Assembly: GCA_905178155.1 (NCBI GenBank)
Contig: CAJINV010000006.1
Span: 3,409,636-3,473,635, forward strand
DNA length: 64,000 bases
Reading direction: 5' to 3'
DNA from: Amoebophrya sp. A120
Taxonomy: Eukaryota > Protista > Dinoflagellata
The notes below the pieces were generated by a model. The model saw only the letters and a program-made list of their open reading frames with translations. It was not told where the DNA came from and did not search any database. Position 1 is the stretch's first letter, and every line of letters begins with the position of its first letter. Positions 189 to 57,900 of the stretch are shown here, piece after piece. Made by a program: the position numbers and the translations under genes.

Positions 189-3100
189 ATGTGAGGTTTA
201 AAGTCAGCAACCCCTGGGTCATGGTGGTGATGCAGGTAATGGTGATGTTGTCACGAATTCATCATGGTTTTTTGTCATGCGTGAAACTGCATGAGAAGGA
301 CTTTCTGTCATGCATAAAACCACTTTACAAATATTTGTTCATTCTGCCATTCACAACATATTCAGATCATCCGTTGGTCCACGATCGTCTGCATCTATAC
401 CGGCGCATTGATGGTTTTAGTTTCCGTCTGCGTGCTCGAGCACCCGAAAGACCCGGCAAAGACGCCGCCAGTCAGCTCGGCAATGAAGTGTGTGATGATC
501 TTGACGGTACTGTACCTCATTGTCTACTTCGGCCTGTTCCTGATGACCTCGCTCCGCACCTGCTTGGGCAGTCAGTTTGGTTCGTCCGTCCTCCGTGCGT
601 TCGACACGGCTCGCGGCACGGTATTCTTCGCGCCGATGCTGTATCCTGCGTAAAAACGTTCCCACCCCAGAGTTGTCATGCAGAATTACAATCACTGAAA
701 AACTTGTAATGCGCATTTCCATGAGAGGCATTTTCAATCGTGTTATGCAATTTGTGATGCTGTCAAGAGAATACCAGGATGGATTTGTGATGCGGTTGTC
801 CTTGCTAACCCGCACTACAGTACAGAGAAAAACTTGTCATGCGTGACTTCCAAAACTTCTGGATCTGTGTTGCAGAGTCCCCAACTTGACTCTGGGGTGG
901 GGACGTTTTTACACAGGATATGCTCTCCGTCCTCTTCCTCGGGTGCCGACTCCGGGCGTTGCAGCTGACGAAGACCATGGGGTCGCCGCAGGGATATGCC
1001 CAGGACTGGATGTTTCTGGCCACCTGGGCCATCATGGGGCAAGTGCTACTCTGCTTCTTCCTGGGTCTCTTATGCATTGCAAAAGCATCGTACTCGTATA
1101 AAAATAAATGCATTACAAATTTCCTCAGCATGAGAAAGAAAATTTGTAAATGTAATGCGGATTTACCTTACGAAGAAGATTTGTCATGCATATTTGCAAT
1201 TACTACGAGTGCGATACTTTTGCAGTGCATATCGCTTCGCGCCGGGCGATTCCTCCGACCTGAAGCCGGACGAGGACGGCAACCTGCATATCACAGGAAA
1301 AAGGGTTAGCGTTAACGGAACTTGTTCCGATGAGAATTTGTGATGCAGTAATGCATCACAAAACGTCGTGTCCAAATTTGTCATGCATAGCATGCATGCT
1401 CGGCAAAATTTGTCATGCGCGACTGCAAACCGTGAAGAACCATCAAAACCGTTGATGTTATACCTTTTTTGTTTGATACTCCAGCTTCCGGAGTCTGCGG
1501 ACGGCGGGAAACCGGGCATCGCACGGTACTTAATGGAAGGCTTCCGCTACTTGTGCATGTTCAGTACGTACGGCGCGGCCATCGGAATTTGCTACGCGAT
1601 CTATACTATCAAATGTAAAAATGTCTGGGTCTGGAAACTTGTGATGCTGTGTGGCGTATCATGAGGAGGCCACAATTGCTGGCTCAGCATGACAAGGTTC
1701 TGAGCTTCTAGGTGTTGCCTATTCATTCTGCATGACAAACTACGTCTGCTCTGCATGACAGAAAAGTGGGGCTCTTTGGTAATGTGCATGACAGATTTAA
1801 GAGTCATGCCAGACAAGCATGACAAACTTGCATTCTTCCAGAGGACCCAGACACTTTTACACTTGATCTACACCATGACCCCGACCAACGCAAACGGGTC
1901 CGGCTCGCTGTTCCCCTGGGGCCCGATATGACAGTGCACAACTCCCCCTCGTTCTCATTTCTCATGCAAAATCCCAAATCCAGTTGCTTCCTTGTATCAC
2001 TATTATGCATGACAAATTCCGCAAGTGGCCCAAACAGTACCACAGTGCGGGGCACACAAATTTGTCATGCATAGGCTCTACGTGTGCTGGTGTTTGTACT
2101 ATTGCTGTTCATGCTACACAAGTGAGGGGGAGAGGGGGGTGTGCACTCTCATACCCGATCCCCCAGCCCTTCGACCCGGCGGAAGCACTGCAGAACGCCG
2201 GAAAATATGCATTGCAAAAGTACCGTACTCGTATAAATGCATTACAAACAAGGTCCGAGCACGGGGACAGAGTCCCCGTGCGGCGACCTTCCGGCATTTG
2301 CCTGCCTGCGCGGTGGCACTGGGCAGGCAGGTCGCCTGCAGCTAGGTATCTCGGTGCGCCTTGCATTCACTGACCCGCGACGGGCCTGCGGACGCGGCAC
2401 CCTTGCTTGCGCGCACTAGGTCCGTTCACCTGCCGCGCGCAAAGATAATATAAAAGAAAAGAAGAAACAAACTGGCGCCGGGTGCGGATCTGGAGCGAGC
2501 CGGCCCGCAAGTCATGACGCGGCGACAGAATCCCCACACTTCTGCCCTAGGGATTTTCTTCGCCCCGTGCTTTCTTGGCCGCGGGGCGTGGTGTCCGGAG
2601 AGTGTTCGTAGCTAGCCCCTAGGCCATGACGCGGGGACCGAGTCCCCGCGCTTGCCTAGGGCTTTCGCCCCGTGGCCGCACGGTGCCCGGGAAGCACTTG
2701 CAGCTGACCCCTAGGCCATGACGCGGGGACCGAGTCCCCGCGCTGGCCTAGGAAGGGCCTTCGCCCCGTGGCCGCGCGGTGTCCGGGAGACAGTTGCAGC
2801 TGGCCCCTAGGCCATGACGCGGGGACCGAGTCCCCGCGCTGGCCTAGGGCTTTCGCCTCGTGGCCACACGTTGTCCGGGAAGCGCTTGCAGCTGACCCCT
2901 AGGCCATGACGCGGGGACCGAGTCCCCGCGCTGGCCTAGGGCTTTCGCCCCGTGGCCACACGGTGTCCGGGAAGCACTTGCAGCTGACCCCTAGGCCAGG
3001 ACGTGGGGACCGAGCCCCCGCGCTGGCCTAGGGCTTTCGCCCCGTGGCCGCACGGTGTCCGGGAAGCAATTGCTGCTGGCCCCTAGGCCATGACGCGGGG

Positions 3101-4729
3101 ACCGAGTCCCCGCGCTGGCCTAGGGCTTTCGCCCCGTGGCCGCCCGCACGTTGTCCGGGAAGCACTTGCAGCTGACCCCTAGGCCATGACGCGGGGGCCG
3201 AGTCCCCGCGCTGGCCTAGGGCTTTCGCCCCTTGGCCGCACGGTGTCCGGGAACGAAGCGCTTGCTGCTGACCCCTAGGCCATGGCGCGGGGACCGAGTC
3301 CCCGCGCTGGCCTAGGGCTTTCGCCCCGTGGCCTCACGGTGTCCGGGAAGCACTTGCAGCTGGCCCCTAGGCCATGACGCGGGGACCGAGTCCCCGCGCT
3401 GGCCTAGGGCTTTCGCCCCGTGGCCGCACGGTGTCCGGGAAGCACTTGCAGCTGGCCCCTAGGCCATGACGCGGGGACCGAGTCCCCGCGCTGGCCTAGG
3501 GCTTTCGCCCCGTGGCCGCACGGTGTCCGGGAAGCACTTGCTGCTGGCCCCTAAGCCATGACGCGGGGACCGAGTCCCCGCGCTGGCCTAGGGCTTTCGC
3601 CCCGTGGCCGCACGGTGTCCGGGAAGGAAGCACTTGCAGCTGTCCCCTAGGCCATGACGCGGGGACCGAGTCCCCGCGCTGGCCTAGGGTTTTCGCCCCG
3701 TGGCCGCACGGTGTCCGGGAGCGCTTGCTGCTCGTTGGCCCCTAGGCCATGGCGCGGGGACCGAGTCCCCGCGCTGGCCTAGGGCATTCGCCCCGTGGCC
3801 GCCCGCACGGTGTCCGGGAAGCACTCGCAGCTGGCCCCTAGGCCATGACGCGGGGAAAGGGCCCCCGCGCTGGCCTAGGGCTTTCGCCCCGTGGCTGGCC
3901 GCACGGTGTCCGGGAAGCACTTGGTTGCAGCTGGCCCCTAGGCCATGACGCTCGCGGGGACCGAGTCCCCGCGCTGGCCTAGGACTTTCGCCCCGTGGCC
4001 GCACGGTGTCCGGGAAGCGCTTGCAGCTGACCCCTAGGCCATGACGCGGGGACCGAGTCCCCGCGCTGGCCTAGGGCTTTCGCCCCGTGGCCGCACGGTG
4101 TCCGGGAAGCACTTGCAGCTGACCCCTAGGCCATGACGCGGGGACCGAGTCCCCGCGCTGGCCTAGGGCTTTCGCCCCGTGGCCGCACGGTCCGTCTCGC
4201 GACGCGTGACAGACTGGACCTCGGGGCCAAACCTCGCGTGACAAAGTCCGAAAGTTTGGCCGGGGTGTGTCCGAAAGTCTGTCTGGGGTGTGTCCGAAAG
4301 TCTGCCCGGGGTGTGTCCGGGGTGTGTCTGGGGTATGTTCGGACTTTTTGCCTGGGGTGTGTTCGGGGGTATGTCTGGGGTGTGTCTGGGGTGTGTCTGG
4401 GGTATGTTTATACCCCACCTTCTGCTTTTTCGCCAAAAATTTGTATTCAGGTCGTGACTGACTGCCATTTGCATACCCCTGACACACCCCCGAACATACC
4501 CCCGAGCATACCCCTCGCATGCATTTTTGACCAGCTGCTGCAGTTTAGATAGTAATTTCCCCAGCATGAGAAATGAAATTTGTAATGTGGATTTACCTTA
4601 AGAACAAGACTTGTAATGCAAGTCTTGCACTTATACGAATACGATACTTTTGCACAGGATAGAAAACAGCTCACCGTGCCGCCCCCGGCCGCTGCGTCGG
4701 GAAGTGCGGCTGCGGCGGGGTTTTTCTGA
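189..4729 (+). CDS. Multi-pass membrane protein of unknown function, 5'-partial, multi-exon
   Basis: Removing introns 236-365, 642-920, 1071-1231, 1289-1478, 1607-1868, 1927-2153 and 2206-4661 (each TIR intron plus one DR) gives a continuous frame: ...FFAPML|SVLFLGCRLRALQLT...GSPQGYAQDWMFLATWA...MTPTNANGSG...NAGK|QLTVPPP...GFF*, with several hydrophobic helices. Confidence 0.8.
236..365 (+). other. Canonical GT-AG intron carrying introner-like internal motifs
   Basis: tgcag|GTAATG...acatattcAG|atc; splicing gives VMVVMQ|IIRWSTIV in frame. Confidence 0.7.
642..920. mobile_element. Introner, TATCCTG.GTAAAAACGT.CCCACCCCAGAG family
   Basis: 31-bp TIR with 2 mismatches, DR tgctg/tgctc; relatives at 9518-9796, 25782-26069, 30795-31074, 50515-51020, 55102-55359, 62354-62699, and a partial copy ending at 188. 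Confidence 0.9.
1071..1231. mobile_element. Introner, TATGCATTGCAAAAG family (mostly 150-165 bp)
   Basis: TIR plus DR tctct/tcgct; relatives at 7088-7242, 7618-7800, 8208-8324, 9282-9438, 10364-10514, 19703-19866, 23719-23874, 25288-25427, 28679-28844, 28884-29031, 29758-29909, 49984-50131. Confidence 0.9.
1289..1478. mobile_element. Introner, TATCACAGG...GTTAACGG family
   Basis: DR ctgca/ctcca; relatives at 33396-33552, 40371-40534, 47128-47295. Confidence 0.85.
1607..1868. mobile_element. Introner, TATCAAATG.AAAA.TGTCTGGGTCTGGAA family (most abundant, about 18 copies)
   Basis: TIR about 29 bp; relatives at 6790-7032, 8379-8645, 9898-10197, 18972-19236, 22402-22653, 23343-23584, 25466-25717, 27011-27263, 35391-35651, 38288-38548, 52477-52718, 57374-57625, 59366-59617, 60560-60821, 63153-63404. 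Confidence 0.9.
1927..2153. mobile_element. Introner, TATGA(C/G)AGTGCACAACTCCCCC family
   Basis: DR cccga/cccga; relatives at 8843-9065, 31158-31374, 43874-44139. Confidence 0.9.
2616..4190. repeat. GC-rich tandem array, 92-bp unit, about 17 copies, palindrome-rich
   Basis: Unit CCTAGGCCATGACGCGGGGACCGAGTCCCCGCGCTGGCCTAGGGCTTTCGCCCCGTGGCCGCACGGTGTCCGGGAAGCACTTGCAGCTG(A/G)CC. Confidence 0.95.
4260..4516. repeat. Short GGGGT(G/A)TGT repeats followed by inverted CA(C/T)ACCCC copies
   Basis: Direct reading; units of about 11 bp. Confidence 0.8.
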
Positions 4730-8800: not shown

Positions 8801-11800
8801 GTCTGTGGAAGATGGATTTTTCGCAACTCGCGCCCATAGACCTACGACAGTGCACAACTCCCCCTCCCCCTCATTTGTCATGCAAAATACCGAATCCACA
8901 TCTTGCCTTTAAGCACTCGGCGCTTCACAAGTTTTGGACGCCCAAACAGGACTACATTCCATGTGCGGATTTGTCATGCAAAAGCAACATTTACATTTGT
9001 GGCATTGCTTCTGTTACTGCTCATGCTATACAAATGAGGGGGAGGGGGCGTTGTGCACTCTCATAAGACCAGATCAGTAACTACATCGAGAACCGCGGCT
9101 ACGATCTGCGGATGCTCATGCCCGCCGTGTATGAAAAAACGGGACGCACGGACAGCACGGTGTACCAGTACATGGTGACAGAAGCACGAGAGGCCGAAGA
9201 CGACATGAATAATCCTTACCCAAACATGGTAACTGCGCTAGCCAAACTGCAAAAAGAGTGCGAGTACGTCCTCATCCGACCTATCGAATGCAAAAATATA
9301 GCGCTGTACTAGTATGAATTGCATCACAAATTAGCTCAGCATTACAAATGAAACTTGCAATGCTGTTTTACCCTATAGGAAAGAGATTTGTCACGCATAA
9401 CAGCAATTACTACGAGTGCGATACTTTTGCAGTTCATACGCCCTATGCAACAGCAACACGCGGACCTCGAAACCGCATCCGAGGAAGAAGAAAAAAGCGT
9501 ACCTATCTACGCCGGTATATCCTATGTAAAAACGTACCCACCCCAGAGTTGTCATGCAGATTTGCCATGACAGGAACATTTGTGATGCGCAACCCCATAA
9601 CAGGCATTTTCAATCGTGTTTGGGAACTTGTAATGCTGTAAACAGGATCAGAAGGTCGATGTGTGATGCGGCTTTCCTTGCTAACTTGCACTACCTTACG
9701 GACTGAAACTTGTCATGCGTGACTCCTAAAACTCCTAGGTTTGTGTTGCAAAATCCCCATCCTGACTCTGGTGTGGGTACATTTTTACTCAGGATACGGT
9801 AGTACCAGCGGCCCTCCCGCAAGTGGAAGTAGTCGCGCTGTCGGGAATGCGGCCCTGGACGCTGCGTTCAGCCAGGACGTGGCTTACTGTCTCCAGATAT
9901 CGATTGCAAATATCCCTGAATGTCTGGAAGGATGCGAACTTGTAGAAATGCGTGTTCCGAATCAACATGCGACTGTCGCGCAGGACCTGCAAAAGTTGCC
10001 CAGTTCTGGTCATGATGAGAAGCCATTTTTCATTGCAGAATAATACACATCGCCTAGTGCAAGTAGGGGCTGCAGAACCTGTGAAGATCATGCTAGGCCC
10101 TGCATATTCCAGACTTGGCAGAGCTAGAGCTTGGAACAACTGCATGACAATAAATCGCGGAACCTTGTTCCAGACCCAGACACTTTTGCAGTTGATACCA
10201 GAGCGAATTATTTCGGAAGCGGACCAGAATTTTAAACTTCTCCCAGAACAAGCGCGCCGGGGTGGTGTTAGCAGACGTGTCAGTGGATGACATCGGGGCG
10301 GACGCTGGGGAGGGAAAGACATTTAAATTTGATCCAAAACTTCCGATGGCATTTGTGTTGGCGTATGCATTGCAAAAGTCTCGTACTAGTATTACTCGCA
10401 TGACAAATTCATATCAAAAAGAGAACTGAAATTTGTAATGCGGATTGAGATAAGAAACCAGATTTGTCATGCATAACTGCGATTCCTACGAGTACGATAC
10501 TTTTGCACAGGATATGGCGCCGCTACGAGCGATTCCGGACGGGTACGAGCCAACCTGGGTCAGTCGAGACTATCAAAAGTAAAAATGTCTGGGTCTGGAA
10601 GTAGAGCACAACTTTGTCATGCACATTTTCCATGATCCATGATATCTGTGATGTATGCCATAGCATCACAGACTTTTTGAGCGCTTACCTATGCGCATCC
10701 AGCACAACAAATGCCCTCTCCGCGTAGCCAAATTTGAGTCCTCTTGCTGGTCATGCAATACAGGTTTTCTGAGCATCCAACACATATATCGCAAAGTCAT
10801 GCTTGCTGGTCATGCAATACAGGTGGACTGTACAGGCGCGACACATATATCGCAAAGTACAAGGAGGAAGAACGCGCAGCAGTCGTGAAGCAAATGAAAC
10901 CGCTGCTGCAAGAACTAGAAGCGACAGCGAAGCGCGCCGACCTCCGAATTTTCGGCGGCGATATGAATGCCGAATTCTACGAGGGCGCCGACGGCGAATT
11001 TCTATTCGCTCGGGAGAAAGTAGCGCCAGTCATCTACGAGGAAGTTTTAGCGCCCCTCGCTCGCCTAATGTCCCTCTATACCAAGTACCGCTGCCCGGCA
11101 GGCCCGACCTGCTTTCGGACCACACCCAGACGGATTGACTTCGCTCTAGTAGGCGCCGAAGACGCAAACTCGCTCAAGGTGAGGCAGAAGCGGGCTAAGG
11201 TGCCGGCCAATTGGCAGTATGAGTTCGGCAAGAAGCAAACGCGCTGCCAGTGGCTGAAGGACGACGAGACCCCAGATGAAGCCGAGGCGGACCATCTAGC
11301 ACTCCATACAGTAATCCGGTGGAGGCCGACGAAGGACGAAACGGGGCAGGGAACAACCGGGGCAGATCGAAACAACATTGGAACAGCAGGCAAAAAGCCG
11401 ACAGCGTTTAACGCAACATACGCTGATAAAAAACCGGGCGGACCCGCGGCCACGGGCAGAGTCAAGGTCCTGAAGAGCAAGGCGGAATTCGAGAAGTGCG
11501 CCCCCTTCCCCGGCGCCATATCCTGGCCTAGGGGGGCAGCGAAGAAAGAACAACTGGCGCCGGTCCTCGAAGCCGCAGAAATGCCAAGCGCGTGCGAAGT
11601 AGGTCTCGACGGCATACAGAACTGGATCAGGGATCTTCTGAAAACGGAGTGCCCGCTGAAGGCAAAGAATTTAATGACCCAGCAGATGGAAGCATTCTAC
11701 GGCCGGAAGGGGGGAAGGAAGGCGCACCAGAAAAAGACGCAGCAAAGCAATGAACCTGAGCAGACGGGCCCTGCCAGCACGACTGAAACAGCTGACGAGA

Positions 11801-14800
11801 AGGACACGCGCATGAAGAAGGAGAAGGCGCGTGAGCTACTAGAAAAATGGCAAGCAACCTACCCGAAACTTGAAGAAGACGACACCGAGGACAGCATCTA
11901 CAAGAAAGCAAGAAGGGTCAGGAAGCTAGTAACGGGGCAAGCGCGTGGCGAACTTGCAGGCGAGCTCAGCAAGATCAACATAGGCACGAAAGAGCAGCCG
12001 GACTGGGTAGAAGGGACGGAGAAAGTGACAGAGGAGGTCGCTTTCTATCACCTACTCAAAAACGAACTGACTCGGGCTGCCGAAGGCCTCGGGCACACGT
12101 TCAACAAAGTCGAGTTCAACAAAGCTTTCCAGCAATTAACGGACGCGTCGGAACACGTCCCGGAGATCGTCACTACTGGGCCACAGTTACGTAAAACCCT
12201 GGGTAGAATGAATGGCGAAGCCGCCGGCGCCGACGGAATGCGCGTCGAGGGGCTGAAATCCCTCACCGACAGCCAACTGCAGGAAGTTGCTGCAGGAGTG
12301 ACTGACTTCTTGCGGAAAGTCGGCAAGGCGATTAACTCCCCCGGCAACATGAGCCAGCTCATCCCGCACGCGCTTACAGTGCTGCAGGTCGAGATCCTGA
12401 CGAAAGCGTCGGGGCCGATTACGGAGGTCAGCAAATTCCGCGCCGTTATTAAGAACACCCCAGTAATGAAACTCCTAGTAAGCCACCTAACTTACATTGC
12501 GACGCGAGTGGCCGACATCAATGACGTTTTCACCCGGTGCGGCGCAGCTGGGAAGCCGGCAGCCTCCTGCACGCTCCAGCTGCTAGAAGTGCTAGAGAGT
12601 TGCCACGGGGCCGAACTGAGCGACGGCTACGACGGCAAAGACGAGACAAGCAAGAACGACGGCGATCAAGGAGCAAAAGCAGTAGCAACCGAGCCACCGA
12701 CCGCGAACGGGAACACGGGAGGAGAACAGACCACGGAGGAGAGCCAAAAAGAAGGAGCGACGGCAGGCAAGAGTAGTAGCAACCTATCCACAGAAGCAGC
12801 AGAGGCAGCAGTTGAAGTAATCGACTGGATCAAGCTCTTAATGGGCCTCGACGCTAGTAATTTTTACAACTGCCTGACGTTGCCGACAGCCGTGCGGTGT
12901 ATGAGACGCGCTCGCTTGCACCCGACGTTTATCAAGTTGATCATGCTCACTACGTGGTCGAAGAAGATCTTCCTGAGGAACGGGAACCACTACGGCGAGG
13001 TCAAAGCACATCGCGACCTCATCCAAGGCTCCGTAGAGTGCATGCTAATAGGAACAATCGTCTACATGGCCGGGGTGCAGAAGGTGGCCGAATTCTTCGA
13101 AGAGTGCTACGACGAAACAGGTCGAATAGTAGCAGGCAAAATCGACGGCGCGACCCACAAACTGCGAAGGAGTATCAGGGAGCTCTACAAAGGCGACAAC
13201 GACATCGACACGTCCTTCCCAGATTACAGCACGAGCGAAATTGACGAGCTTTGGTTCGATGCGGGATCGCTAGGCGGATCGACAACAGGATACCGGCGGA
13301 CACAGACCTGGAACAAATATCGGAAGGTGTACGTGCAGACACATCAATCCGGAAAGCTCCAGAGCCCGGAAGAGCCAGCGCGGCAGAAAACTTCCTCAGC
13401 GCTTCAATTTGTCGATGATGGGACCCTTTGTCTCAGGTACAAACCTGCAGACCACGCACTAGCGTTGCGACTACTGAGTGCTGTGAAAACGGTCTACGAA
13501 GACATCTACCGAAGTGAAGGTCAGTATCTTGCGCCGTTAAAGTGCGAATACGTTTTTTCCGGAACAGCAGAACAGTCGGAGCAGGTCCGTGAGGTTTTCT
13601 CCCCATTCGGGATCGAGTTCAACGAGAAGAAAGCTGCGAAGATCTTGGGAGTGACAATCAGCCTGAGTAGTATCGACGAGCAGCGCGCGGCACTTAGGAC
13701 GCAAGTCAGAAGAGCGATCGGGACGGCACAACACCACACGGAACAGCTGATGGTCGCGCAGCCCCGGATGGACGGCAAGGAACTTCGAACAGCAGTGCAG
13801 GTCTTCTTCCTCTCCCCGCTGCTTTACCGATTGCCGGCTATGCATTTGATCTTCAAGCCAGAGGACTGGACAGAGCTACTGACAGACATTTCGTTCGGCG
13901 CAGCCAGGTCGCTGGGCTTTAGCTGGGAGGCCATAGCAAAACTAGCGGAGAAGGCAAAGACCGGAGGTGGCGAGTTCTACCGTATCATCTTCAGCGAAAA
14001 CGTTCTGGCTTTGGTCGACCCGTATCTGCTAGGCATCAAGATTCTACGGTCAGCGGCGCAGGCTGGGTACTTGACAGATCCCGACAGATTGATCAAGTGG
14101 GCGACCTTTCCGATTTCTCTTCACGGAGCAACGAGCACAGGTCTGACAGAATCAGACGCGGCTGACATCGACGACAAGAACCAGGCCGATGTCGCGTTGT
14201 TGGACGCAGCGGCAGCAGGCGCGTCAACGAGGTTGCCACCAGCAAGTGATCTACGGTGCACGGGGTTCGTCCCGGATCGTTCCGGGCTCAGTGAGGAACC
14301 CTCACAGAGAACCGCCCACCGCCGCCGCTTCTTTAAAATCGAAGCCAATAATGCCGGTGATGGAATCGCATGCAGTGAGACGGACATCCTCGGGACAGTA
14401 GTAAGGCCGAGCGTTTTGCAGGTGAAGACAGTGCGAACACACCTGAGGACCGAAACCGGCAGGAAGGAACAGCGGGCAGCAGCATACATCAACAACGCCT
14501 TGTATGCGATGCCATTGCTGATCCAGGAACAACAGTCGGATGGAGGAGAAAGCTTCGTAATTTCGCTAGAAAACTACCAGACACTTCACGACGGAACAAA
14601 AGGACCGATCCGGAAAGGCCAAGGGATCGCTTTGGACCTGGTAGAAGCAATCGAGGGACTACAACTTCTAGGCCATCGGGTCCTGCGAAAAAACAGCCAG
14701 AACCGGACGGAGCTAAACGCGGCGCAAGGCGTGCATGAGATCCCCCTCAGGTTCGTCAACATCTCCGGACATGACAAAAACATGGACTGGCCGATCTATG

Positions 14801-17800
14801 AGTTCGGTGAGGAACTATTTGCGTTCGGACCGGTTTCGACCTGGCAACGGATGAGCAAAAAGGAGCGCGGCGCTTTCCTTGCCCAGGCCCTAGGAGTAGA
14901 AACAGACGAGGAGGCGGCAGAGCGGGCACGAAAAGAACGAGAAGCCGAGAGAACACAACCCCAGCCCAAGGCGCCACAGGGGGCGAGTCAGAGTAGCGGG
15001 ACTGCCGGAAAAAAGTCGACTAGCGGCGCAGGACCAAAGAAAAAACAGGCAAAAGCGAAAGCCCCGGGGCCTGCACCACCACAGCCGGTAGGAGAAAAAA
15101 CACCGCCACCAAAACGCAGGAGGGTTTCAGAGCAGTCGGACGACGACGCAGGCGAAAAGAGAAAGCCCAACAGAAAAGCACCACCAGCGCCGGCAGCCGC
15201 GGCAGAAGAGCAACCAACAGCAAAGGCCCCGACACAGAAAAAGACAAAGGGCGCGGCTGGGCCGAAACCGAAGCCACCAGTAGCCACGGCAGCAGGAAAA
15301 GCCCCAGCAAAAGCTCCGGAACAGAAAAAGGCGAAGGGGGCTGCCGGACCGAAGCCGAAGGCAACGGAAGCCAAACCGCCGCAACCCAAGGCGGGCGGAA
15401 AGAAGAGATCTGCAGAGGAGGCGGAGGCGCTCCCGGGTGTGGCAAGCAAAAAACAGAAGCAAACCAGCAAAAAACAGGAGGAAGCCAACCCAGCGAGAAA
15501 AAAGCCACCACCTAAACAGAACGAGGCGCCGCGACAGGCCGCTAATTCCGCAGCGGAAAACACCGCAGAAGCGGCGCCACCGAAGAGCGAGCAAGCCGAG
15601 ACACGGAAGACCCACGGAACAGAGCAACTGGCTACGCAGGGAGATCGGGAGGACGCGAAACCTGCAAACGGGCTCGGCGGGAGGGCCGAAGCAGAAAAGC
15701 AGGAAACAGCGGCAACAGAGAAAAGCAAGGCACAACCGGCGAGGCCGGGTGCCATGTTTACGTCGACGAGCCAGTTCTCGATGGTCGGTGACCTGTTCCG
15801 CGAACTGGAACGCAGCCGGAACAACAGCAACCAGCCAGCCTCTCACTCCTCCTCAGCCTCTTCCTCCTCGTCCGCAAATACGAAAGCCAAGTAAAAAAAA
15901 GAAGAAAAGAAGAACCCCACTCGTCGAACCCCGACGGATACCCCCTCAAGCCCATCCCTCCCCGCATAGTAGTACCCCTTACCTACATGAAGAGCGAGGG
16001 ACCTCGTAGCACCAGGCGGAATGGAAAATAGTAGCTACCCCCAGATGATAGCAAAGTAGCGAACGACGACCCGGAGTGCGCAGAATCGGTTGTAGACATG
16101 GCGGCAAATCGACCGACGAAAAAGAGCGCGCGAGATAACCACACTGAAACCAAGCAGACACCTGACTGACGTTTTGTACATATAGAGCTGCACAAAGATG
16201 AAAAAAAGAGAAAAAGGAAAAAAGCGCAAGCCGTCCGGCGGGGCGGCCGCTCCTATCCATCACACATCGGAGCACTCGATGTTCCTGCTCGGTCCCGGCG
16301 ACGACGAGGGGTAGCGAGAGCCACAGCACGGAGCGACACAGAGGAAAAGAGAGTAATCCAAAAACGCATGGCCTCACGTACGTACACTTCTGCACTTTTG
16401 TCTTTGCTCCCCGAAAGGGGGTTTCCTGTGGGGGGGGGGTGCGGGAAGTCTAAAAGCAAATGGAACGAAAGCCGCCTGCAAGCGAAGCGATCAAAAACCA
16501 CGGCAGAAGCGATGTCATGCGGGTGATGTGGTTCAGGGGCGATTGCGATCCCCCATTAGGCATGGCGATAGCAAGGGCGTTGCACGACGCGAAGATCTGT
16601 CATGCAGTTTGAACGTGCCAGAACCAAGCCCCACAGTCAAGACGACAACAGCGGCAAAGTGATCAGCCTTCGGGCGTGCGCGATGCTCGTTCCATCTACT
16701 TTTTCGACGATTCACTTCCTTCACCAGGGCCTTGCTCAACCCTGGACCAGAACGAGTAGGACCAAGGACCCAAGAGGTAGGCACTGTAGCGGAAAGTTGG
16801 AGCAAAAAAAATTTTTTTTGAAAAAGGACCCAATAGGAGCCGACCTGCGTGGATGGTTATAAAACAGGTAGCCTGACCCCAAATGGCAATGATCATTGGG
16901 AGCAGCAGAGCGCAGCAGGACCCCGGGACTGCAACAGCTCACCCCTGTTTTAACTTAGAATCACGCAGTGCTCCGAGTATGCCACTACCTCGACCCCTCA
17001 AGAAAAGAAGTAGCCCCCCCAACTACAACACCGCCGTCCGCGATCAGGATACGACTTGTACTAACCAACATTGTACCAACCGAGATCCCGCGGGGCGCAG
17101 GGTCTGGGCGGCTCGAAGCAGAACGCGCAGCACAAGCGGGAGACAACACATCCAAAGGTGGGGATGGTCTCAGGTCGTTCAGGTCCGCCAAGGGTTGCGA
17201 CGCGCTATCAGGGTTTCGCCAACTCCGCGGGGGCGTTGCGGGTAACTCCCTAAAACACCAAAACCGGCAGAAATTAGGGCCGGCAGTCCGGGTAATTGCT
17301 CACCAGTCGTTTTGTATGACGAACCAAGAGGTGCAACGCGAACAGATAGGCATGAATTTAGCATCTCCGGCTGGTAGAGCAATCGGCTACCGAGGTACGT
17401 CAGGGGGCGTAGCTACATCAATCAATCCAAATGTAGCATCACAAGTTTGGCTCTTCCAGGCCCAGACACTTTTGCATTTGATAGAGACGCGCCAAGCACG
17501 AAACTGTACCCCAGCGACATTGGCAGCGAGAAACGGGAGCGAATCGACGAGGACGCTCACCGATTGAAAACCATCTTCGCGCTATGGAAGTGTCAGGATC
17601 GAAATCATCAGAGTTGAAATAATTTGTGACGCATAAAACGATTAACCCGTTGGCGCCTTGTTTTCAAGTGGCGCATGATGACAAATTTGGGTAGAACTGA
17701 AATCCAGTTTGTGATGCTGTTTCGGTAAGGAAGACGCCTGCTGTATTTGTCATGCTACTTTAGCAGCTCAATTTCTACCCCTCGACAGGCTTGCAATCTG

Positions 17801-25213: not shown

Positions 25214-28200
25214 CTAAATCCGATCCGCGATGCTGCTCCGCGTGCAGCCGCAGCAGTTGGGGTGGTGCTTACCGTCAAACGCGACGCTATCCACTGCAAA
25301 AGTATGTTATTGCATTTATGCATTACAAATCTCTTTCTCAAGGTGAATCAGCATTACAAATCAAATTTGTAGTGCTGGGCTAATTTGTAATGCAGTTTAT
25401 ACTAGTACGATGCTTTTGCAGTTCATACACGTTCTCCTTTGATGACTGTTTCGGGCAGTACAACCTATCAAATGTAAAAGTGTCTGGGTCTGGAAACTTG
25501 TGATGCTGGGTAGCGTTTCATGATGAGCCCACAAATGCTACCTCAGCATGACAAGTTTCTGAGTTTCTAGGTGTTGCCCATGCTGCATGACAAACTGCGT
25601 TTCTGCATCGCAGAAAAGTGGAGCTCTTGGGTAACGTGCATGACAGATTTAAGAGTCATGCCAGACAAGCATGACAAACATGCATTCTTCCAGACCCAGA
25701 CATTTTTGCATTTGATACAACCTCCTGCAGCCCAACAAACAGCACCAGTACTCGTAGCACCCGTAAAACAGTCCCCGGGTGTATCCTGCGTAAAAACGTC
25801 CCCAGCCGCCCAGAGCTGTCATGCAGATTTGCAATCACAGGAACATTTGTCATGCACAGGCCCGTGAGAGGCATTTCCCGGTCGTGTGTTTTGAAATTTG
25901 TAATGCTGTAAACGGGATGAAGCTATGGGTTTGTGATGGGCCTGTCCTTGCTCAACTACCCTACAATACAGAGGGAAACTTGTCATGCGCGACTCCCGAA
26001 ACTTCTGCATCTGTCTTGCAGATTTACCAACTTGTTGACTATGGGGTGGGGACGTTTTTGCTTAGAATAGGGTTGGGCCGGTCAGCTTGTAGGTTTGGTT
26101 GTACTCCAGGTGCAGGGAGTGGATGTTGCGGGTCCGATCCGCGATACCCAGCCGGTCCCAGTAGTCACAGTAGTCGTCCCAGCACATCCAGAAAGAGCCA
26201 TCATCCTTCGCCACATGGATCTTCGCCTTGACCTGTATTGTGATTTCCACATCGACATCCACGCATCACAAACGCTGACTTGCTTGCAGCTCGTGCATGA
26301 CAAGCTTTTTCGAGTTTCTGTGCGACTGGGATATGTAAAACATGATTATCATTATGCACGTTCTGCATGACAGACAAAGCCGACCTGCTAAGTATAGTAC
26401 CGCTGGAAACTCTTCCCATTTCGCCGAGTTGTCGCCCCAGTCACCTTTCCACTCACCCCCGCCCCACGGATTCCGGATTCGCACGAGCCTATCCTTAGAA
26501 AAAAGGGCTACAGTAGGTACACGTTTGTTGGAACTTCAGCAACACAAACTTGCTCGGCATGGCAGAGTAGAAAACTTGCAATGTTGCAAAGATTACAAGC
26601 GAATAAAACACATATGAAACGAGGCATCTACTAAGCATGTCCCGCATGACAGGACTTGTCTGCCTTGCTGGTCCTGCAACACTATGTGTAACTGTGACAC
26701 TTTTTGCTGGGGGTAGAGCTTCAAATGACACGGGCCCGTCCTGGAGGATTCCTTGAATTCTTATCCACAGCAAATAATTTGCCGGACACGTTGTACAAAT
26801 GCAGTTTCTGCATGACAAAACTTTTCTGTAATCCATCCTGTTCAGCACGACAAGTCGATGAATTCTCAACAAAGGTTGATGCCCAATTGCAATTTGTGAT
26901 GCATTTTGTACGTCGTGCACGGGGACGAAAAATTTGTATTGCATAGCTCTTGCGCGTCGAGGATGGAGTACGCGTGCCCGGAAACTAATCCGTCCATCCG
27001 CTGCGCGCCATATGGATTGCAAAAGTGTCTGGGTCTGGAAGAATGCAAGTTTGTCATGCTTGTCTGGCATGACTCATAAATCTGTGATGCAGGAGCAGGA
27101 AAAGGACCTCTTGTCTGTCATGCAGAAACGCAGTTTGCCATGCGGAAAACGAAACACAAGAGCAGCTCAAAAATTTGTCATGCTTGGCTGCGTATTGGAG
27201 TGCGCCCACCAGTCACACTTTAGCATTACAAGTTTCCAGACCCAGACATTTTTGCATTTGATACGCCAGAGGCACAGAGCACCGACCCCCGCCGATTATG
27301 CAAGGCAAAAGAAACGATTGCGATGTGAAACATGCATCACAAAACTATTTCTCACGACGAAAAGTAGGATAAGGAAAAACAAAGAGGATCTGTCATGCAA
27401 ATCCTTGCATTGTCACTTTTGCCGAGGATAGCGGTTGTAGCGAAACAAAGTGTCCCACATCTCGTCCACCGAAAGCGTTTCGTCCGTGCCCTGCAGGGAC
27501 CCGTTGCGCTTGTCCCTGAAAGAACAACAAGTTGTGTTGCAGAGCTACGACGAGGAAGTGGTTTTGACATGCACATCAACCATGATCAGCATCAGCATTT
27601 TCATGAAAAGCGAACGTTTACGTTGATGCTGTTCCTGCTCGTACGTAAGTACTATGTTGGAGTTGGTTTTCGATTATTTATACCTGGCCACCGGTCGCAG
27701 GCAGTGTCGGCACACTGGGTGCTTCGACGGATCTTCTTGATTCACGAAGTTTGGTATGGAGGCGTGACAAAGTTATCAACATCACCCACAGTTGTAGTTG
27801 TCGTGTCTCGGGACCACAAACGGAGCACAATCAAAAACGTCGCACCGTATGTGCTGGACCTTCACTGCCACTGCGCCGGGCTATCTATCTAGCGCGTCAT
27901 GTGAAGCTGGTAGGGGCGCGCGTGTAAATACTATATCTCTTCAACGGGCGGCGGGGACGCGGCGCGGGGGCGAAGCGGCAGACTGCAGCGTAGCAAGGTC
28001 TTGCATTCTCGTAAGCGCGCCTGCGACGCATCAAATAGGCAGTTGCGCGGGCAGTTGCAAGGAAGGGCTGGGAGGGTTAGGCGCCATTCCGAATCGCGGG
28101 GACTTCTCAGGAAGTGCATGTTTAGCCCGACCACGTGCAAGCGAACCAATACCAATGGTGCCCAGTGCTAGGACATAGTGGAAGAGGAGCTACGACTGCA

Positions 28201-31200
28201 AATTCTTCATATGCAAGCTGCAGCTTGCTACTTTTCTGCAAGAATCGAAGTCGAATCTGAGTGAGCAGCTACGGAGGGAGACAGCTAGAACCGTGCGCGG
28301 TGAGGATTCTTGCAACAGCTGCACTTTCGTACCCCACCTCTTCCACCTGGTGCCGCCCGACTTCTCCTTGGAATACCACCGGCAGTGGTCCCCCGTCATC
28401 GCCCGCAGTGCCCAAATCGTGCTTCCCCCCTCCAGGTTCTGGTAGGATCCGCACAGTTTCTATCCAAAACAAATTTATTGCCGTCCACGATGTACAAATG
28501 CAGTTCCTCCATAACAATAGTTGTGCTGCAACCCTATTCAGCATGACAACTTGCATGCTTTGCCTGCTCGAGGAGATTAGATTTGTGATGCATTTCGTAC
28601 ACTGTGCACGGGAATGAATTTATAGTGCATAGTTTTGCAAACGCCTTCTCCAGCAGCAGCACCCACAATTCCTCCCCGTATGCATTGCAAACATATGCAT
28701 ATCGCACTAGTAGTAGGAGTCGCATTACAAATTTTCGCAGTATGACAAATAGAATTCGAATTTGTTGTAATGCTGATTTCGGCTTAGTAAGCACATTTGT
28801 CATGCGGTAGTACCACGAGTGCGATACTCGTCTCTCAGTGGATACTCCGTTCGGCTGCGCAAATTTCGGCTTCGCCACCCCAGTATGCAGCGCAAAAGTA
28901 TCGCACTCGTATAAATTGCATTACAAATTTCCTCAGCATGAGAAATAAAATTTGTTATGCGGATTTACCTTAAGAGAAAGATTTGTAATGCATGGCTGAA
29001 TACGAGTACGATACTACTTTTGCACAGGATACCCAGATCGCTCCCACGCGTCCCGATCGCACGGAATGTAGTCGTCGATGGTAAACACGCGCCATTTAAT
29101 CCTCTAGAAAAGTTGTATCATCATCATGTAGTGGACACCCTCTCCCAGCGCCACAGGTCAAGGATCCCCTCCCCGGGGGGTGGGCGAGGAAGCGCTTTCG
29201 GCAACCTCATCATACAAAAGCCGAGCGCTACCACGGCAAGTCGCCCCAAGAAAAGTGCCAACCAGTCGGGAGCTACCCACCACACCTGATCAGTACAGCC
29301 CGGCCAGCTAGCCGAGCGCGACAGCCCAACATACAGAACGATCCAGGACCCGACCCATTTTACGCCATACGTTTTTGTTCTCACGGAAGAGACGACGCAC
29401 CCCTTTGGGTTAAGGGGCGAGACTCTCCCCTAAGCCGCAGCCCCGCCCAGACTGGGGAGGCTGGACCGTTTGTGCCTTACCTGCGGCACGGGCGAACAGA
29501 GCAAGTGCACGGACCACAGTTGTCAAACCATAGACCAGTAGTAAGTGCGTAGTAAGTGCGTAGTAAGTGCGATATTGCATGACAAACCCATTTTCTATAC
29601 GGTAATTTAGAATGAGAGATTCCATTTGTAGTCATGCTGAGAAATAAATTTGTAATGCGATAACTCCTACCACAGTACGATACTTTTCTATCTTGCGCCA
29701 TACACTGCCCGCGACAGCCATCCGCGGTTCCGTCGAACAGTTGGATTTTGTACTTATTATGCATTGCAAAAGCATCGCACTCGTACTAATTGCATTTATG
29801 CATTACAAATTTCTGTCTCAAGTTAAATCCGCATTGCAAATTTTGTTTCTCATGCTGAGGAAATTTGTCATGCGATTCATACTATAGTACGATAGTTTTG
29901 CAGTGCATAATTACCCCGCGGGTCCAACTCTTTGGTCAGAAACAAATTGTCAATGGCCCCGGGGCGCTCCGCCATGCAGGCCATCGCGGCCATCAGCCAG
30001 CAGTCGCCGATCTGGCCTTGCAGAATGTCCGTGGCGGAGATGCCGTCTTGGTACAGTTGCATGTTCGAGTCCGTGAGTTTCCCCTGGATCAGCGATTGGT
30101 AGAGCCGCTTGGTCATCGACGGTCGTTTCGGTTTCTCTGACTTGCCACCACCGCCAGCGACTTTGGATTTCTGTGGAAAATTTTGTTTTAAGTGGTTCTA
30201 TGCATGACAAACCAATGTGACTTGTCACTCCTGCATGACAAAAGCTCGCTCTGCATGACAAATTCTTCTATACCCCAAACTCCCCCGCTCGGAGCCACAC
30301 CACCTTCTCGTGTATCGTCGCCGCCTGGCCCAGTGTGTCAGGTGCAAAAGTAACGTACACTATGCTATGCAGCAATTGCAATATTGCATGACAGATCTAT
30401 CTGTGTACGCTAATCAGCATAACAAAGTCCTCCATTTCTTATGCCAAGAAAACTTGTAGTAATGCAATTTCTACTATAGGTACGATAGAAGTTTTACGAT
30501 GGATACTGTGCAGCACTGTCGCCTCCCACATTCCCAAGCGAACTCGGACAGGGCGGAAATTTATGGTCGACGTAACTCCAGGCACAGCAGGTCCAGATGA
30601 TCCCGAAGCAGCGGCAGGTCCAATCGCAGGCATGGCAGCAGAAGCAGCAGAACCGGTGGAAGGAACGCTTCAAGTGGATCCCGAGGCAACTGCAGCAGTA
30701 GATCCGGATAGCGTGGTAGCACAGCACGATGGGGGAGAAAATGATGTTGTACAAACAGCACGCGTTGCCCTCCCGCGCGTCAAAGCAGCAGCAGTATTCT
30801 GAGCAAAAACGTTCCCATCCCAGAGTTGTCATGCAAAAACGCATGCTCAAAATGCTTCTCATGCGGATCCCCATGACAGGCATTTTCTCGTCGTGTTTTC
30901 GAATTGTAATGCCCCGATCAGCATGGTGGGTGCGATTTGTGATGCGTCTGAACGAGGTAAACAGGATGACAGTACGAGGTCGAACTTGTCATGCGCAACA
31001 CCCTAGGTGTGTAGATTTGTCTAGCAGATTTCCCATCTTGAATATGGGGGGGGGGGACGTTTTTACTCAGGATAAGCAGCAGTACTTCCGTACCGGGGTG
31101 GGTTCTTTCGTTTTCGGGTCGATGCCCATCTTCTCGACGTAGTCGAAACAGGTTTCCTATGACAGTGCACAACTCCCCCTCCCCGTCATTTGTATTGGAT

Positions 31201-31477
31201 GAACGGCAATTACAAGCATCAGCAAGAATGCCGGTTTTGCATGATAAAGTTGCACTGCAGCGTAGTGCAATTGGGGATGCCAGAACTTGTCATGCAGACA
31301 GTGCCAAGAGGCAAAGGGTAGATTGGGTATTTTGCATGACAAATGCGGGGGAGGGAGCATTGTGCACTGTCATATTTCCCCCCGTGCATACCCCTCCTGG
31401 TAATCAAACTGCCCGCGCTCCTTTTCCGGGTTAGTGGACAGCCCGAGCTGCCGGGCCACCTCGCCCGGGGCGGCCAT
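25214..31477 (-). CDS. Calpain-family cysteine protease (peptidase C2, CysPc) with Cys-rich termini
   Basis: Catalytic triad motifs QGQIGDCWL, GHAYSIL, IRNPWG; also TIDDYIP, ELWVLLLEKAFAK, DDGSFWM; about 17 introner introns. Confidence 0.92.
29119..29537 (-). mobile_element. 5'-truncated retroposon fragment with (ATG)n tail, inside an introner
   Basis: (CAT)3 plus gtagtggacaccc...ggtcaaggatcccctccccgggg, shared with 50725-50801; (gtagtaagtgc)3 at the other junction. Confidence 0.65.
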
Positions 31478-54942: not shown

Positions 54943-57900
54943 TCAGCTGTCTTTTTGTTTGTTTCTCCGTTTTGTTCCACAACATCGGGCAAAGCGCCGA
55001 CGTAGCCTTTCACCCAAGCCACGGTCCGCCTGGCGCGCGCGCGTTACCTTTTCCCACCCTTCAAAAGACCAGACTTCGTTTCCGCGTTCTACTGGCGCAA
55101 TTATCCTAGGGAAAATACTTAAACGGGGCCCACGCTGTCCCACAGTCAAGATGTTAATTTTGCATACACAAATCCAGAAGCTTCGGGAGTGGTCACGCAT
55201 GACAAGTCTCTAGCGCAACTAGCTGTCGTGGGGTGCAAATTAGCAAGGACAGCATCATGCGCATTACAAATCTTGCTGTAGATGCGAATCCACACGAAAA
55301 GTCTGAAGTGTACTACTTGTTAGAAGTGGGTGTGAGCCTCGTTTTATTTACTCAGGATACCAGAGCGTGTCTCTTCTTCATCTGCTACCCCTCCAAATTC
55401 CTCGTAGGAGCAATCGTACACGTCATAGTTCTTAACCTCCGAGGTAGGTCTAGTACTAGTACTTGGGGTGTGGATATTCAGCTCCGCAATAGGTGTAAGA
55501 AAATGGATGTGTCAGGATCGAAATCGTCAAAGCGGAAAAAATAGTTTGTCATCATAAGACCGAAGATACCAGTGGGAAAGAACCCACTTATGCTTATCAA
55601 GCAGCGCATGACAAATTTTCCGAGCACCGGAATCCAATTTGTAATGCTTTTTAGGCGCAGAGGACTGCTTTTCTTGTAATGCTACTTTAGCAGCTCTATT
55701 TCAATAAACCCCAAACAGCTCACAATTATCGGCCTCACCTGCCATCCCGGCAAGACAGGCACTTCAGCATCAACTTCATGCCTTGCATTTTAGTTTTATG
55801 AACGGCAACTCATTATTCAACCCCTTCGATTTCAAGCCTGACGCTTCCATAAGGTTGAAGCGAAGAAGATAGCCGCTGCGCCGTTGCGTAGCGCAAATAG
55901 CTCACCCCACAAATTTCATTTACCCCGTCTCTTCCTCCAAGTTGGTGCGCTTTTCGGACAATTTCGGGAGATACGATTACCATTCGGGAAGCCCATGACT
56001 GGGTCTGATACCAAGGCCAGCGGTTCACGGGCTCTAACTATCACAAGGAAAAATCCCCCCTCCCCATATCGAAACGAAGTTTCTGATGCTGGATTTGCGT
56101 ACACAAATCAGGCCTGTCTTGCTGGAGAGGACTGCAGGCATATGCCAAGCCTGGGTCGAGAGGTTTTGACGTAGGGGACTAGCGTGACAGACGTCGGCGC
56201 TGTAAGCCCAGCAGCATCACAAACCGCCGGCATAATGCGGCGGATTCTCTGGCTTTGCCTTCTTGCAAGACAGACAGGATTTGTGACCTCAAATCTGCAT
56301 CACAAATTTTCAGACGCATGCGTTTTCGATATGGGGAGAGGGGATTTTTCCTCTCAATACTAACGGCGTGTGGCGAAGCGTGACGGCGACCTTGCGCAGC
56401 TCTGCATAATTTATGGGAGCGTCAGGTTTGAAATCGTCAAAGTTGAAATAATTTGCAATGCATAAAATGCATGACCCGAGGCACGTGTGTTGCAGAGAAG
56501 GCAAGTGAGGCCGATTGTAAGCCTGTTTGGGGTTACAGCTCGAGCTGCTAAAGTAGCATGAGAAAATCGCTCTTCTTTACCTAAACAGCATGACAAACTG
56601 GATTTAGGGAGAGCCGAAATTTGTCATGCGCCACTTGGACACTGGGTTCCAACTGGCATCCATTTTATGCATGGCAAATTATTTCAACTTTGTCGATTTC
56701 AACTCTGACACATCCATATAATTGCGCCCGTGGTTAATATCCGTGTTGAGGGCAAATTCGAATACAGCGGTGAGCTTCGGGCGGCGGCGGCGTTCCACCA
56801 CGCAGTGAGGATCTGGTGGAGCGTCCTCGTGTTCACTGTGCTCTCGGAGCTGGAGCTCGGTGGGTAAGTTCCTGCGCCAGTCAAAGGAATTCTCGATGCG
56901 GTAGTAGATGGCTTCCTGACGGCTCTCTAGACGAAGCCTCATGTGTCGGACAGGTGACGCTTCGTCCGGAGAGTCGTCAGAAACTACAGGAAGCCAGCTC
57001 CAGCCCACAGCGGGCTTCTTCAACTCTCCCAGTGCTAGCAACAAAGATATCCAAGAAAAAAACTTGTCCCTTAGTGTAGGTCTAGGTGTGCTGCTGGTGG
57101 TGTCTTTGATTTTTAGCTGCATGACAAAATTCTTCTGCATCACAGAGAAGTCCTTGTGTCATGCAGCACAGCTAGTACGTCAAAACACGTACGGAAGCAG
57201 AGCATTGATATGGCTGGTACGCGTGACAAGTGTGCCTGCGTTGCATGCTTTCCCTATTTATAGCACAGACAATACTTACACTGCTGCGCTGTTTTTTTCT
57301 TGCATAAAAGACATCGTGCGTTCGACGTCGGCGATCGGCGGAAAACCTTGGCGAGTTGTCTCCGCTGCGTCAGTATCAAATGTAAAAATGTCTGGGTCTG
57401 GAAGAATGCATGTTTGTCATGCTTGTCTGGCATGACTCTTAAATCTGTCATGCGCATTGCCCAAGAGACGTTTTTTTCTGTCATGCGGAGACGCAGTTTG
57501 TCATGCAGAATAGGCAACACCTACAAGCTCAGAAATTTGTCATGCTGAGCCAGCACTTGTGGCCTCCGTATGCTACGCCACTCAGCATCACAAGTTTCCA
57601 GACCCAGACATTTTTCCATTTGATAGTCAGACTCGCGGCGCCCGCCGATCGGCGGAACCGTCAGCAGCGCCTCTCTCGGCGCCATCAAGTGGGACGGCGC
57701 TTGACCACCACGGCGAAGCCCACTGCTGGCGCTACCGCCCTCCTCCCTCCGTACTTCATGTCGAGGCTGGTACGCAAGCAGGCTGCGTAGAAAGTTACGC
57801 GCAAAGACGGTAACCACGCGCGACCGCTGCAGCTGGGCCACCTGGTTTGGGCCCTCAATGCTGGCCCCCAATGCGGTCCGACCCCAACCGCGACCGGCAG

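Follow-up and report, generated by a model that had tools for sequence, protein, structure and literature searches.

The stretch of Amoebophrya sp. A120 DNA analyzed here (64,000 nucleotides; the window) is eukaryotic coding DNA broken up by short elements that begin with TAT and end with ATA. In the text of PMC7789003, the introners of Amoebophrya number in the tens of thousands, have no known mobilizing enzyme and no fixed splice dinucleotides, and occur in an organism without detected U1 snRNA; for strain A120, the same text (Farhat et al. 2021) reports no transposase. The elements of the window repeatedly carry an internal motif with the consensus (A/G)TTTGT[C/G/A]ATGC (strict form TTGTVATGC/GCATBACAA). 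The question raised by this locus is what the motif does, that is, whether it is read on the DNA by a mobilizing protein, marks introns for the host, acts in RNA, or persists by descent.

Introner elements and their families

The elements of the window are introners with TAT...ATA inverted repeats, flanked by target duplications of 5 bp. Their features match those of the introner elements described for strain A120 in the text of PMC7789003, where the A120 inverted repeat is given as TAT, seven variable bases, and AAA, with direct repeats of 3 to 5 bp. To extend the sample, metagenome contigs were scanned with the motif pattern alone (reverse, forward, and forward sites 15 to 45 bp apart), which returned at least 144 loci, 139 of those listed belonging to a single WGS assembly (JACKZZ01 contigs), in which the element families of the window are also found. 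Ten loci were dropped for overlap and 6 because they came from elsewhere; the remaining 129 loci and the window formed the dataset of 631,494 bases. Because these loci were seeded on the motif, the groups that match the seed (G0, G10, and G4) were left out of conservation rates unless stated.

A detector of terminal inverted repeats (TIRs) and target site duplications (TSDs) yielded 615 candidates, 585 of them with a score of at least 18; in the long sequences, 372 elements reached this score, compared with 11 in reversed controls. The TSD is a perfect 5-bp repeat in 77% of the strong-TIR elements and is 4 or 6 bp long in <1%. Among the 1,170 ends of the 585 elements, T, A, and T are found at 1,156, 1,164, and 1,159, respectively, and A at positions 11 to 13 in 963 to 1,082, although the TAT-N7-AAA end features also counted in the detection score and this logo is hence not independent of it. 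Element lengths peak near 150, 215, 255 to 265, and 305 to 320 bp; the family lengths of ∼149, 160, 208, 214 to 227, 252 to 261, 278, 305, and 320 bp are as in the Dataset rows of Gozashti 2025. Insertions fall into phases 0, 1, and 2 in the proportions 206:112:141. With TIRs, a TSD of fixed length, a short noncoding interior, and insertion in both orientations, the elements have the anatomy of miniature inverted-repeat (MITE) or nonautonomous TIR DNA transposons.

Clustering gave 15 components, with 18 groups of three or more copies and 39 singletons, and profile searches merged the 18 groups into nine lineages. A preliminary description of the window had taken the families to be unrelated, with interiors that do not align. 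This is contradicted by groups G5 and G7, whose TIRs differ and whose interiors are clearly alignable, and by 10 of 139 between-lineage consensus pairs that still align at z > 4 when motifs and 30-bp ends are masked (60 shuffles each); the sharing of the motif is therefore at least partly a matter of inheritance. The common internal motif with its exact spacing suggests, in addition, that the many introner “families” form a single lineage that has diversified and uses the same machinery throughout. At TIR positions 14 to 34, the left and right arms covary (205 joint changes versus 142 expected, 147 of them complementary; relatedness uncorrected), which, despite the family-specific TIR sequence, suggests selection for pairing or homogenization of the arms. 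Among 11 long TIR pairs in the 0.63 Mb, whose inserts were translated in part, neither a transposase nor an autonomous element with matching ends was found.

Several introners contain other DNA. At 10571 to 17483, a G1 introner is split by a 6.6-kb insert with a 1,718-amino-acid ORF (10738 to 15894) that has no Pfam or PDB match, “LINE” being only the label of the preliminary description. At 2206 to 4661, a G0 introner contains a GC-rich tandem array of 2.3 kb. Position 2205 is joined in one contig to sequence that lies just past 4661, so the whole 2.4 kb appears to be spliced out. Further nested inserts lie at 47372 to 48985, ∼33645 to 34658, ∼29103 to 29700, 50515 to 51020, and 51734 to 52082. 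A 426-bp piece of one of them (29117 to 29542) is 96.5% identical to locus L079, and the insert at 47.6 to 48.9 kb has its own motif copies at 48331 to 48604. As for the surrounding genes, a Pfam search of 10 ORFs gave a match in one (Nas2_N/PDZ). This PSMD9-like gene occupies 22653 to 24150 on the minus strand, and one contig extends from this gene as far as the 3′ region of its upstream neighbor, which has its poly(A) near 24630.

An internal motif concentrated in introners

The enrichment of the motif in introners was confirmed: the strict form occurs 194 times in the window (97 copies on each strand), compared with a mean of 1.5 and a maximum of 5 in 30 base shuffles, and 159 of these copies lie inside 76 first-pass element candidates. 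At least one strict copy is present in 60 of the 64 catalogued window elements and in 314 of 344 nonseed elements. Across the whole dataset, the strict motif reaches 10.0 per kb in DNA masked as elements versus 0.13 outside, a contrast inflated by the seeding. Its reported near absence from exons and from the “LINE” also stands, with no strict copy in two long coding stretches (5.1 kb) or in the 6.6-kb LINE-like insert, nor in a 2.1-kb satellite or a 2.4-kb AT-rich stretch. The earlier figure of three to eight copies per element in both orientations is right as to orientation (both in 53 of 64 window elements under a relaxed pattern) but overstates the number, which is 0 to 5 for the strict form (mode, 2) and mostly 3 to 5 for the relaxed one (range, 0 to 8).

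In viral contigs, a scan for tandem motifs found 11 loci of just two to four copies each, taken as chance or tandem repeats. The three-site pattern matched one viral and five other metagenome loci among the matches listed, with no TAT/ATA element seen in them, and a pattern combining the spaced sites with an element end gave six prokaryotic matches without a convincing TIR partner (14 to 17 of 25) and no viral match. Three loci (L028:10001-10089, L041:923-1011, and L150:301-389) hold iteron-like arrays of 22-bp direct and inverted repeats with GCATTACAAA; they are unrelated and probably prokaryotic.

One fixed spacing instead of a helical series

The preliminary description derived a possible helical phasing from two elements (Table 1). 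In the first, all five motif starts that it listed are present, along with an extra forward site, and a 33-bp pair (1753 to 1786) precedes the pair of the recurring cassette; a contig joint (1604>1872) skips 267 nucleotides, that is, the element plus 5. In the second, the sites at 25546, 25585, 25638, and 25669 are exact, but the one at 25605 is degenerate. The two elements are, however, members of the same family, identical at 228 of 261 positions (87%), so their spacings count as one observation, and the differences between them (43 versus 39 and 23 versus 20) are 4- and 3-bp indels. Since the second element lies in a minus-strand gene, the same G2 sites read forward in its pre-mRNA.

Table 1. 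Motif-bearing elements and introns of the window with their sites
Feature	Position	Strand	Remarks
GT-AG intron, no significant TIR; complete cassette F(0)-R(+16)-F(+33)	236..365	+	joint 232>363, GT..AG
G3 element, strict sites all forward on transcript, spliced	642..920	+	joint 635>920
TSD 5′ copy TATAC	1602..1606	+	3′ copy TACAC at 1869-1873
TIR introner, group G2, TAT...ATC end variant	1607..1868	+	TIR 22/30, TSD 4/5; in plus-strand gene
Forward motif TTGTGATGC	1639..1647	+	32 bp in from left end of 1607-1868
Three minus-strand motif copies (1687, 1730, 1753)	1687..1761	-	motif scan
31-bp same-strand pair (1786, 1817) with degenerate opposite site midway (recurring cassette)	1786..1825	-
G2 element, second example of the preliminary description	25466..25717	-	minus-strand gene; joint 25458>25716
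G3 element, only reverse-reading strict sites on transcript, spliced	25782..26069	-	joint 25776>26070
TIR-less GT-AG intron; three copies, all reading forward, the last two at a spacing of 32 nt	26233..26400	-	joint 26230>26399
Predicted GT-AG intron, no significant TIR; three copies, all reading forward, at spacings of 20 and 31 nt	30171..30273	-
G3 element, only reverse-reading strict sites on transcript, spliced	30795..31074	-	joint 30789>31075
Old G3-derived intron common to two gene duplicates	55102..55359	-	partner 62354-62699

The proposed series of spacings close to multiples of 10 to 11 bp was not recovered. In nine lineage representatives, there are no same-strand pairs at 20 to 22, 41 to 43, or 62 to 64 bp and 14 at 31 to 33 bp, where 1.4 are expected; in 2,000 randomizations, no 3-bp window reached 14 pairs (maximum, 8). 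At the consensus level, all 18 groups together have 24 such pairs, and the 31- to 33-bp pair is found in all nine lineages and in 17 of the 18 groups (the 17th, G17, at 31 bp), G7 being without it. The absence of pairs at 21, 42, and 63 bp from the representatives points to a single three-turn distance and not to a 10.5-bp series. A residual 10.5-bp phase has a mean cosine of 0.29 (n = 60; standard error, ∼0.09) in the nonindependent 18-group set and of 0.07 (n = 25) in the nine representatives. Helical phasing should thus be restated as one fixed spacing of three turns, as would suit a dimer.

The 31- to 33-bp pair and a weaker opposite-facing site at +15 inside it (mean score of −8, compared with ∼−27 for background) make up a cassette that resists changes in length. 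Length changes of at least 3 bp affect 8.4% of the copies across 18 cassette intervals versus 22.8% across 21 other intervals (p = 0.002), and a pair at 30 to 34 bp is kept in 226 of 344 nonseed copies and 37 of 64 window copies. The outermost inward-facing forward sites cluster 32 to 36 and 40 to 44 bp from the element ends. A rule akin to 12/23, in which a 33-bp end is paired with a 42-bp end, was considered and rejected, as it is true of some groups and fails in G1, G4, G5, and G7.

Conservation imposed along spreading lineages

In every one of the 18 groups, the motif sites are islands of conservation. In 344 nonseed copies, divergence from the family consensus is 6.9% in the motif cores and 23.7% at the other interior bases, a 3.4-fold difference. 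Common descent, which the preliminary description had named as a refuting outcome, is partly borne out: it accounts for the sharing of the motif among families but not for its selective retention.

The mismatches between TSD copies serve as a clock. They number 35/777 and 33/712 where the exonic base is at codon position 1 or 2 and 72/806 at position 3; the first two imply a postinsertion clock of ∼4.5% per intronic site. As a proxy for the age of single copies, the TSD mismatch is nearly Poisson and has little resolution, and it was used only as a mean clock. When the clock is removed, 2.4% remains for the motif versus 19% for the interior, a ratio of 0.13 (0.12 in G3), so most of the conservation was imposed along the spreading lineages. 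The invariant G of the motif changes at 2.0%, compared with a clock of 4.3 to 5.8%, and TIR positions 14 to 30 change at about the clock. Conservation of the motif in all 18 groups, spacers that change several-fold faster, and one fixed spacing support the earlier suggestion of a shared cis-code for a trans-acting protein.

Orientation, splicing, and pairing

All 18 element joints among those listed (contigs of runs X3 and X6, taken as RNA; window positions 635 to 2154 and 25283 to 31375) remove the element plus 5 nucleotides. A single register fits all of them, with the donor one base before TAT and the acceptor four bases after ATA, at any dinucleotide, in agreement with the noncanonical NT-NN splice types in Table S4 of PMC7789003. 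At the 5′ end, the terminal T never varies (0/512, versus 10/508 for the 3′ end), and at the 3′ end, the first A of ATA hardly does (1/515 versus 8/515); this A, seven bases before the acceptor, is a candidate branch A.

A codon model gave the gene strand for 544 of the 585 elements and agrees with the RNA-supported genes of the window. Large families occur in both orientations without bias. For example, the six consensus sites of G3 are all on one strand, yet its copies are oriented 19:20 relative to transcription. Reverse-oriented G3 copies mostly have no sense-like site (best score of 7.0, compared with 3.9 for shuffled sequence and 15.7 for a typical site), and two of them are spliced (Table 1). 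In 69 of the 544 strand-called elements, there is no sense copy. An obligatory spliceosomal signal such as a branch site or enhancer, with a sense copy at a set distance in every intron, is therefore not what these introns contain. Among predicted GT-AG introns without a recognized element (boundaries predicted), 16 of 75 have the motif and 59 do not. Together with the two introns spliced without a strict sense copy, these 59 make “the recognition signal of the non-canonical intron system,” as the motif had tentatively been called, too strong a term.

The motif had also been proposed as a seed for internal RNA pairing. In opposite-facing consensus pairs, however, the degenerate base is complementary in 20 of 61, compared with 37% by chance, and across copies it shows no covariation (near pairs, 145 versus 132 expected; outer pairs, 183 versus 166; others, 621 versus 639). 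In the predicted fold, it is the 25- to 30-bp TIR stem that joins the intron ends. The balanced orientation of G3 and the lack of covariation indicate that splicing does not depend on the motif as an obligatory signal on the sense strand and that the motif does not seed pairing; combined with the fixed three-turn spacing, they favor a site on duplex DNA.

A proposed binding array for a mobilizing protein

With a probability of about one-half, the motif is an ancestral double-stranded DNA binding array for a mobilizing protein that has become secondarily useful for splicing. From sequence comparison, this reading is favored by the constraint at the level of lineages, the fixed spacing, the presence of both strands in the cassette, the independence of orientation, and the lack of covariation. 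It is further favored, in part by analogy, by the many TIR-less GT-AG introns that do not have the motif and by the subterminal arrays of DNA transposons described in the text of PMC11707139. Against it count the failure to find a transposase or an autonomous element, both here and in the A120 work of Farhat et al., and the distribution of the motif sites, which run through the whole element and not just near its ends.

Under such a mechanism, a single trans-acting transposase or accessory protein would mobilize all families through the motif. It would sit as a dimer or oligomer on sites three helical turns apart, on the same face of the helix, and would help to synapse both element ends, and a DDE-type enzyme would cut at TAT/ATA and integrate with a 5-bp stagger; Tn7 and Mu offer a parallel for the 5-bp TSD. 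As the terminal sequence beyond TAT-N7-AAA varies among families, the bulk of the specificity would come from the internal array. Once an element is inserted, its splice sites would be set by the TIR stem and the terminal bases, and an extra benefit of sense copies in splicing would explain both their slower decay and the survival of the motif in some GT-AG introns.

Host-level signals and alternative explanations

The main rival is that the motif serves first of all to mark introns for the host: a host protein bound at the 32-bp pair, on DNA in either orientation or on nascent RNA, would recruit a spliceosome without U1, and introners would keep the motif since it makes them tolerable. Several observations speak for the host and against transposition. 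At the same sites in the nonseed groups, sense-reading copies (UUUGUVAUGC) have 218 changes in 4,408 positions and reverse-reading copies 253 in 3,820. In 521 copies, the stratified difference is −1.2 points (permutation p = 0.003; post hoc test), and control positions show no base-specific strand bias. When copy age is included in the model, the rate ratio comes to 0.82 (z = −2.8), to 0.85 without G3, and to 0.87 (z = −1.9) without G3 and G11. For the sense-specific purifying selection expected of an auxiliary intronic splicing enhancer, z spans −1.9 to −2.9 depending on the families kept, and within copies it is −2.1. The forward-rich orientation is favored 161:118 (p = 0.012), and the invariant G changes below the clock.

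The motif is also found where no TIR is recognizable. The predicted TIR-less GT-AG introns contain 26 sites versus 2.4 in shuffled sequence, and 4 of the 10 with at least two same-strand sites have a 31- to 33-bp pair (0.6 expected), three of the four having been added by hand. Three GT-AG introns of the window have mostly forward copies, a 31- to 33-bp pair, and no significant TIR remnant (Table 1); two are RNA supported, and for the third, at 30171 to 30273, RNA evidence is limited to the acceptor side (the contig piece ends at 30171). Both motifs are intact in one paralogous intron pair, the old G3-derived intron and its partner, where 0 of 18 motif columns differ versus 45 of 216 others (p ∼0.015, one pair). 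A search for shared flanks gave no informative diverged pair apart from this one, noticed by eye. The failure to detect U1 snRNA in Amoebophrya, as stated in the text of PMC7789003, also suits a host mark.

The duplicates themselves appear to be diverged genes (55000 to 58400 and 59700 to 63900) with just one common introner position by eye, implying that most insertions postdate the duplication. A near-identical repeat beside an N gap (57310 to 57700 and 59322 to 59700) is a possible assembly duplicate and was excluded from conservation counts.

Conversely, the lack of the motif in most predicted GT-AG introns speaks against a primary host mark, as does the splicing of G3 without a sense copy and without orientation bias. 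Reverse-reading sites decay at 6.6%, compatible with neutrality. The strand asymmetry is modest and post hoc; in G3, nonmotif positions are likewise asymmetric and the effect is partly confounded with copy age, and G5, G7, G8, and G10 show the opposite asymmetry (small samples). Orientation in the TIR-less introns is mixed (F16:R10 and, in a further count, F23:R15); a first automatic GT-AG caller (F40:R20) was too noisy and is not relied on. Selection for mobilization and selection for splicing are, moreover, confounded along any introner lineage. Taken as the primary role, a host mark is somewhat unlikely. The signals do suggest that the motif plays a real, if modest, role at the host level, with copies that read in sense probably aiding splicing to a modest extent.

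A further possibility, which we rate as quite unlikely, is that introns are marked on the DNA: one sequence-specific protein, perhaps a domesticated transposase subunit, would bind the 32-bp pair, mobilize all families, and recruit the spliceosome cotranscriptionally. If this were true, transposition and intron definition would use one code in a lineage without detected U1 snRNA.

Alternatively, the elements might move as excised intron RNA, with the motif as a one-sense packaging or priming signal and the cDNA integrated by a retroviral-type integrase. The 5-bp TSD and insertion in either orientation fit an integrase, the one-strand family G3 could spread from a single orientation, and Gozashti 2025 describes homology between TIR introners of A120 and Copia/Gypsy sequences. 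This route is nevertheless improbable: the exact 31- to 33-bp spacing, with its central reverse site, is better suited to duplex DNA, the intron as excised has 1 + 4 extra TSD bases that would require asymmetric trimming, and the dataset shows no sign of reverse transcription.

That the motif has no function and is simply left over from an ancestor of all the elements has a slim chance and is largely refuted. Homology outside the motif does link the families, but the cores are less diverged overall and in the 96 closest pairs of all groups (3 to 4% versus 15 to 18%), the spacing is preserved against indels, and the low mutability of the motif context that a relic would need is absent in non-CpG controls. 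Pairing of forward and reverse copies in the pre-mRNA to join the intron ends is disfavored to the point of being negligible, since, although the two orientations are complementary and the outermost pair can lengthen the TIR stem in the predicted fold, the degenerate base does not covary, whereas the TIR arms do, and G3 has one orientation only.

Relation to known systems

The closest comparison class for the proposed array is the subterminal transposase-binding repeats of piggyBac/piggyBat, Tol2, Ac, and Tag1 and the TnsB sites of Tn7, as covered in the text of PMC11707139. These too are short motifs that recur within the ends in both orientations, are better conserved than their flanks, and lie at set distances. 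In contrast to them, the array described here fills nonautonomous elements that are spliced introns and is common to families with different TIRs; the likeness is one of arrangement, and the binder is putative. Other TIR/TSD introners and noncanonical introns (Micromonas, Aureococcus, and Polarella; Fritillaria and euglenids) are also MITE-like, with TSD-derived splice sites and, for some classes, insertion in either orientation; they differ in their TSDs and splice rules, and the parts of that literature consulted mention no common internal motif.

The motif also resembles a Sox/Oct composite element. Alveolates are not known to have Sox or POU factors, and the likeness is probably a coincidence, at most a hint, by analogy, that an HMG-type DNA bender might bind the motif. 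The Hoxb1 element (CTTTGTCATGCTAAT; bioRxiv 2022.09.23.509242) contains the 10-mer TTTGTCATGC, but the bases after ATGC are not conserved in the introners.

The elements themselves were already known. The text of PMC7789003, figures S19 to S25 aside, shares with the present account the noncanonical NT-NN splicing but covers terminal inverted- and direct-repeat motifs only, without an internal motif, a 31- to 33-bp cassette, or a strand-resolved splice register. Neither motif nor cassette is described in the consulted parts of PMC7789003, PMC12130899, PMC9860276, PMC11282704, and bioRxiv 2020.10.14.339549; the 10-mer does not occur in 12 of the 14 supplements of PMC12130899, and 21 of its 58 A120 rows contain no motif description. 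We found no description in the literature searched, relative to which the internal motif and the 31- to 33-bp cassette are new, although figures, theses, and subscription papers (the final Roy 2023 article) could hold one.

Significance

A shared internal motif with so exact a spacing offers a concrete bait with which the missing mobilizing protein might be purified and a signature by which the autonomous element, as well as old, decayed introners, could be found. If the host-level signal holds, a transposon binding site would have been co-opted as a splicing aid in Amoebophrya, or introns may be defined from the DNA.
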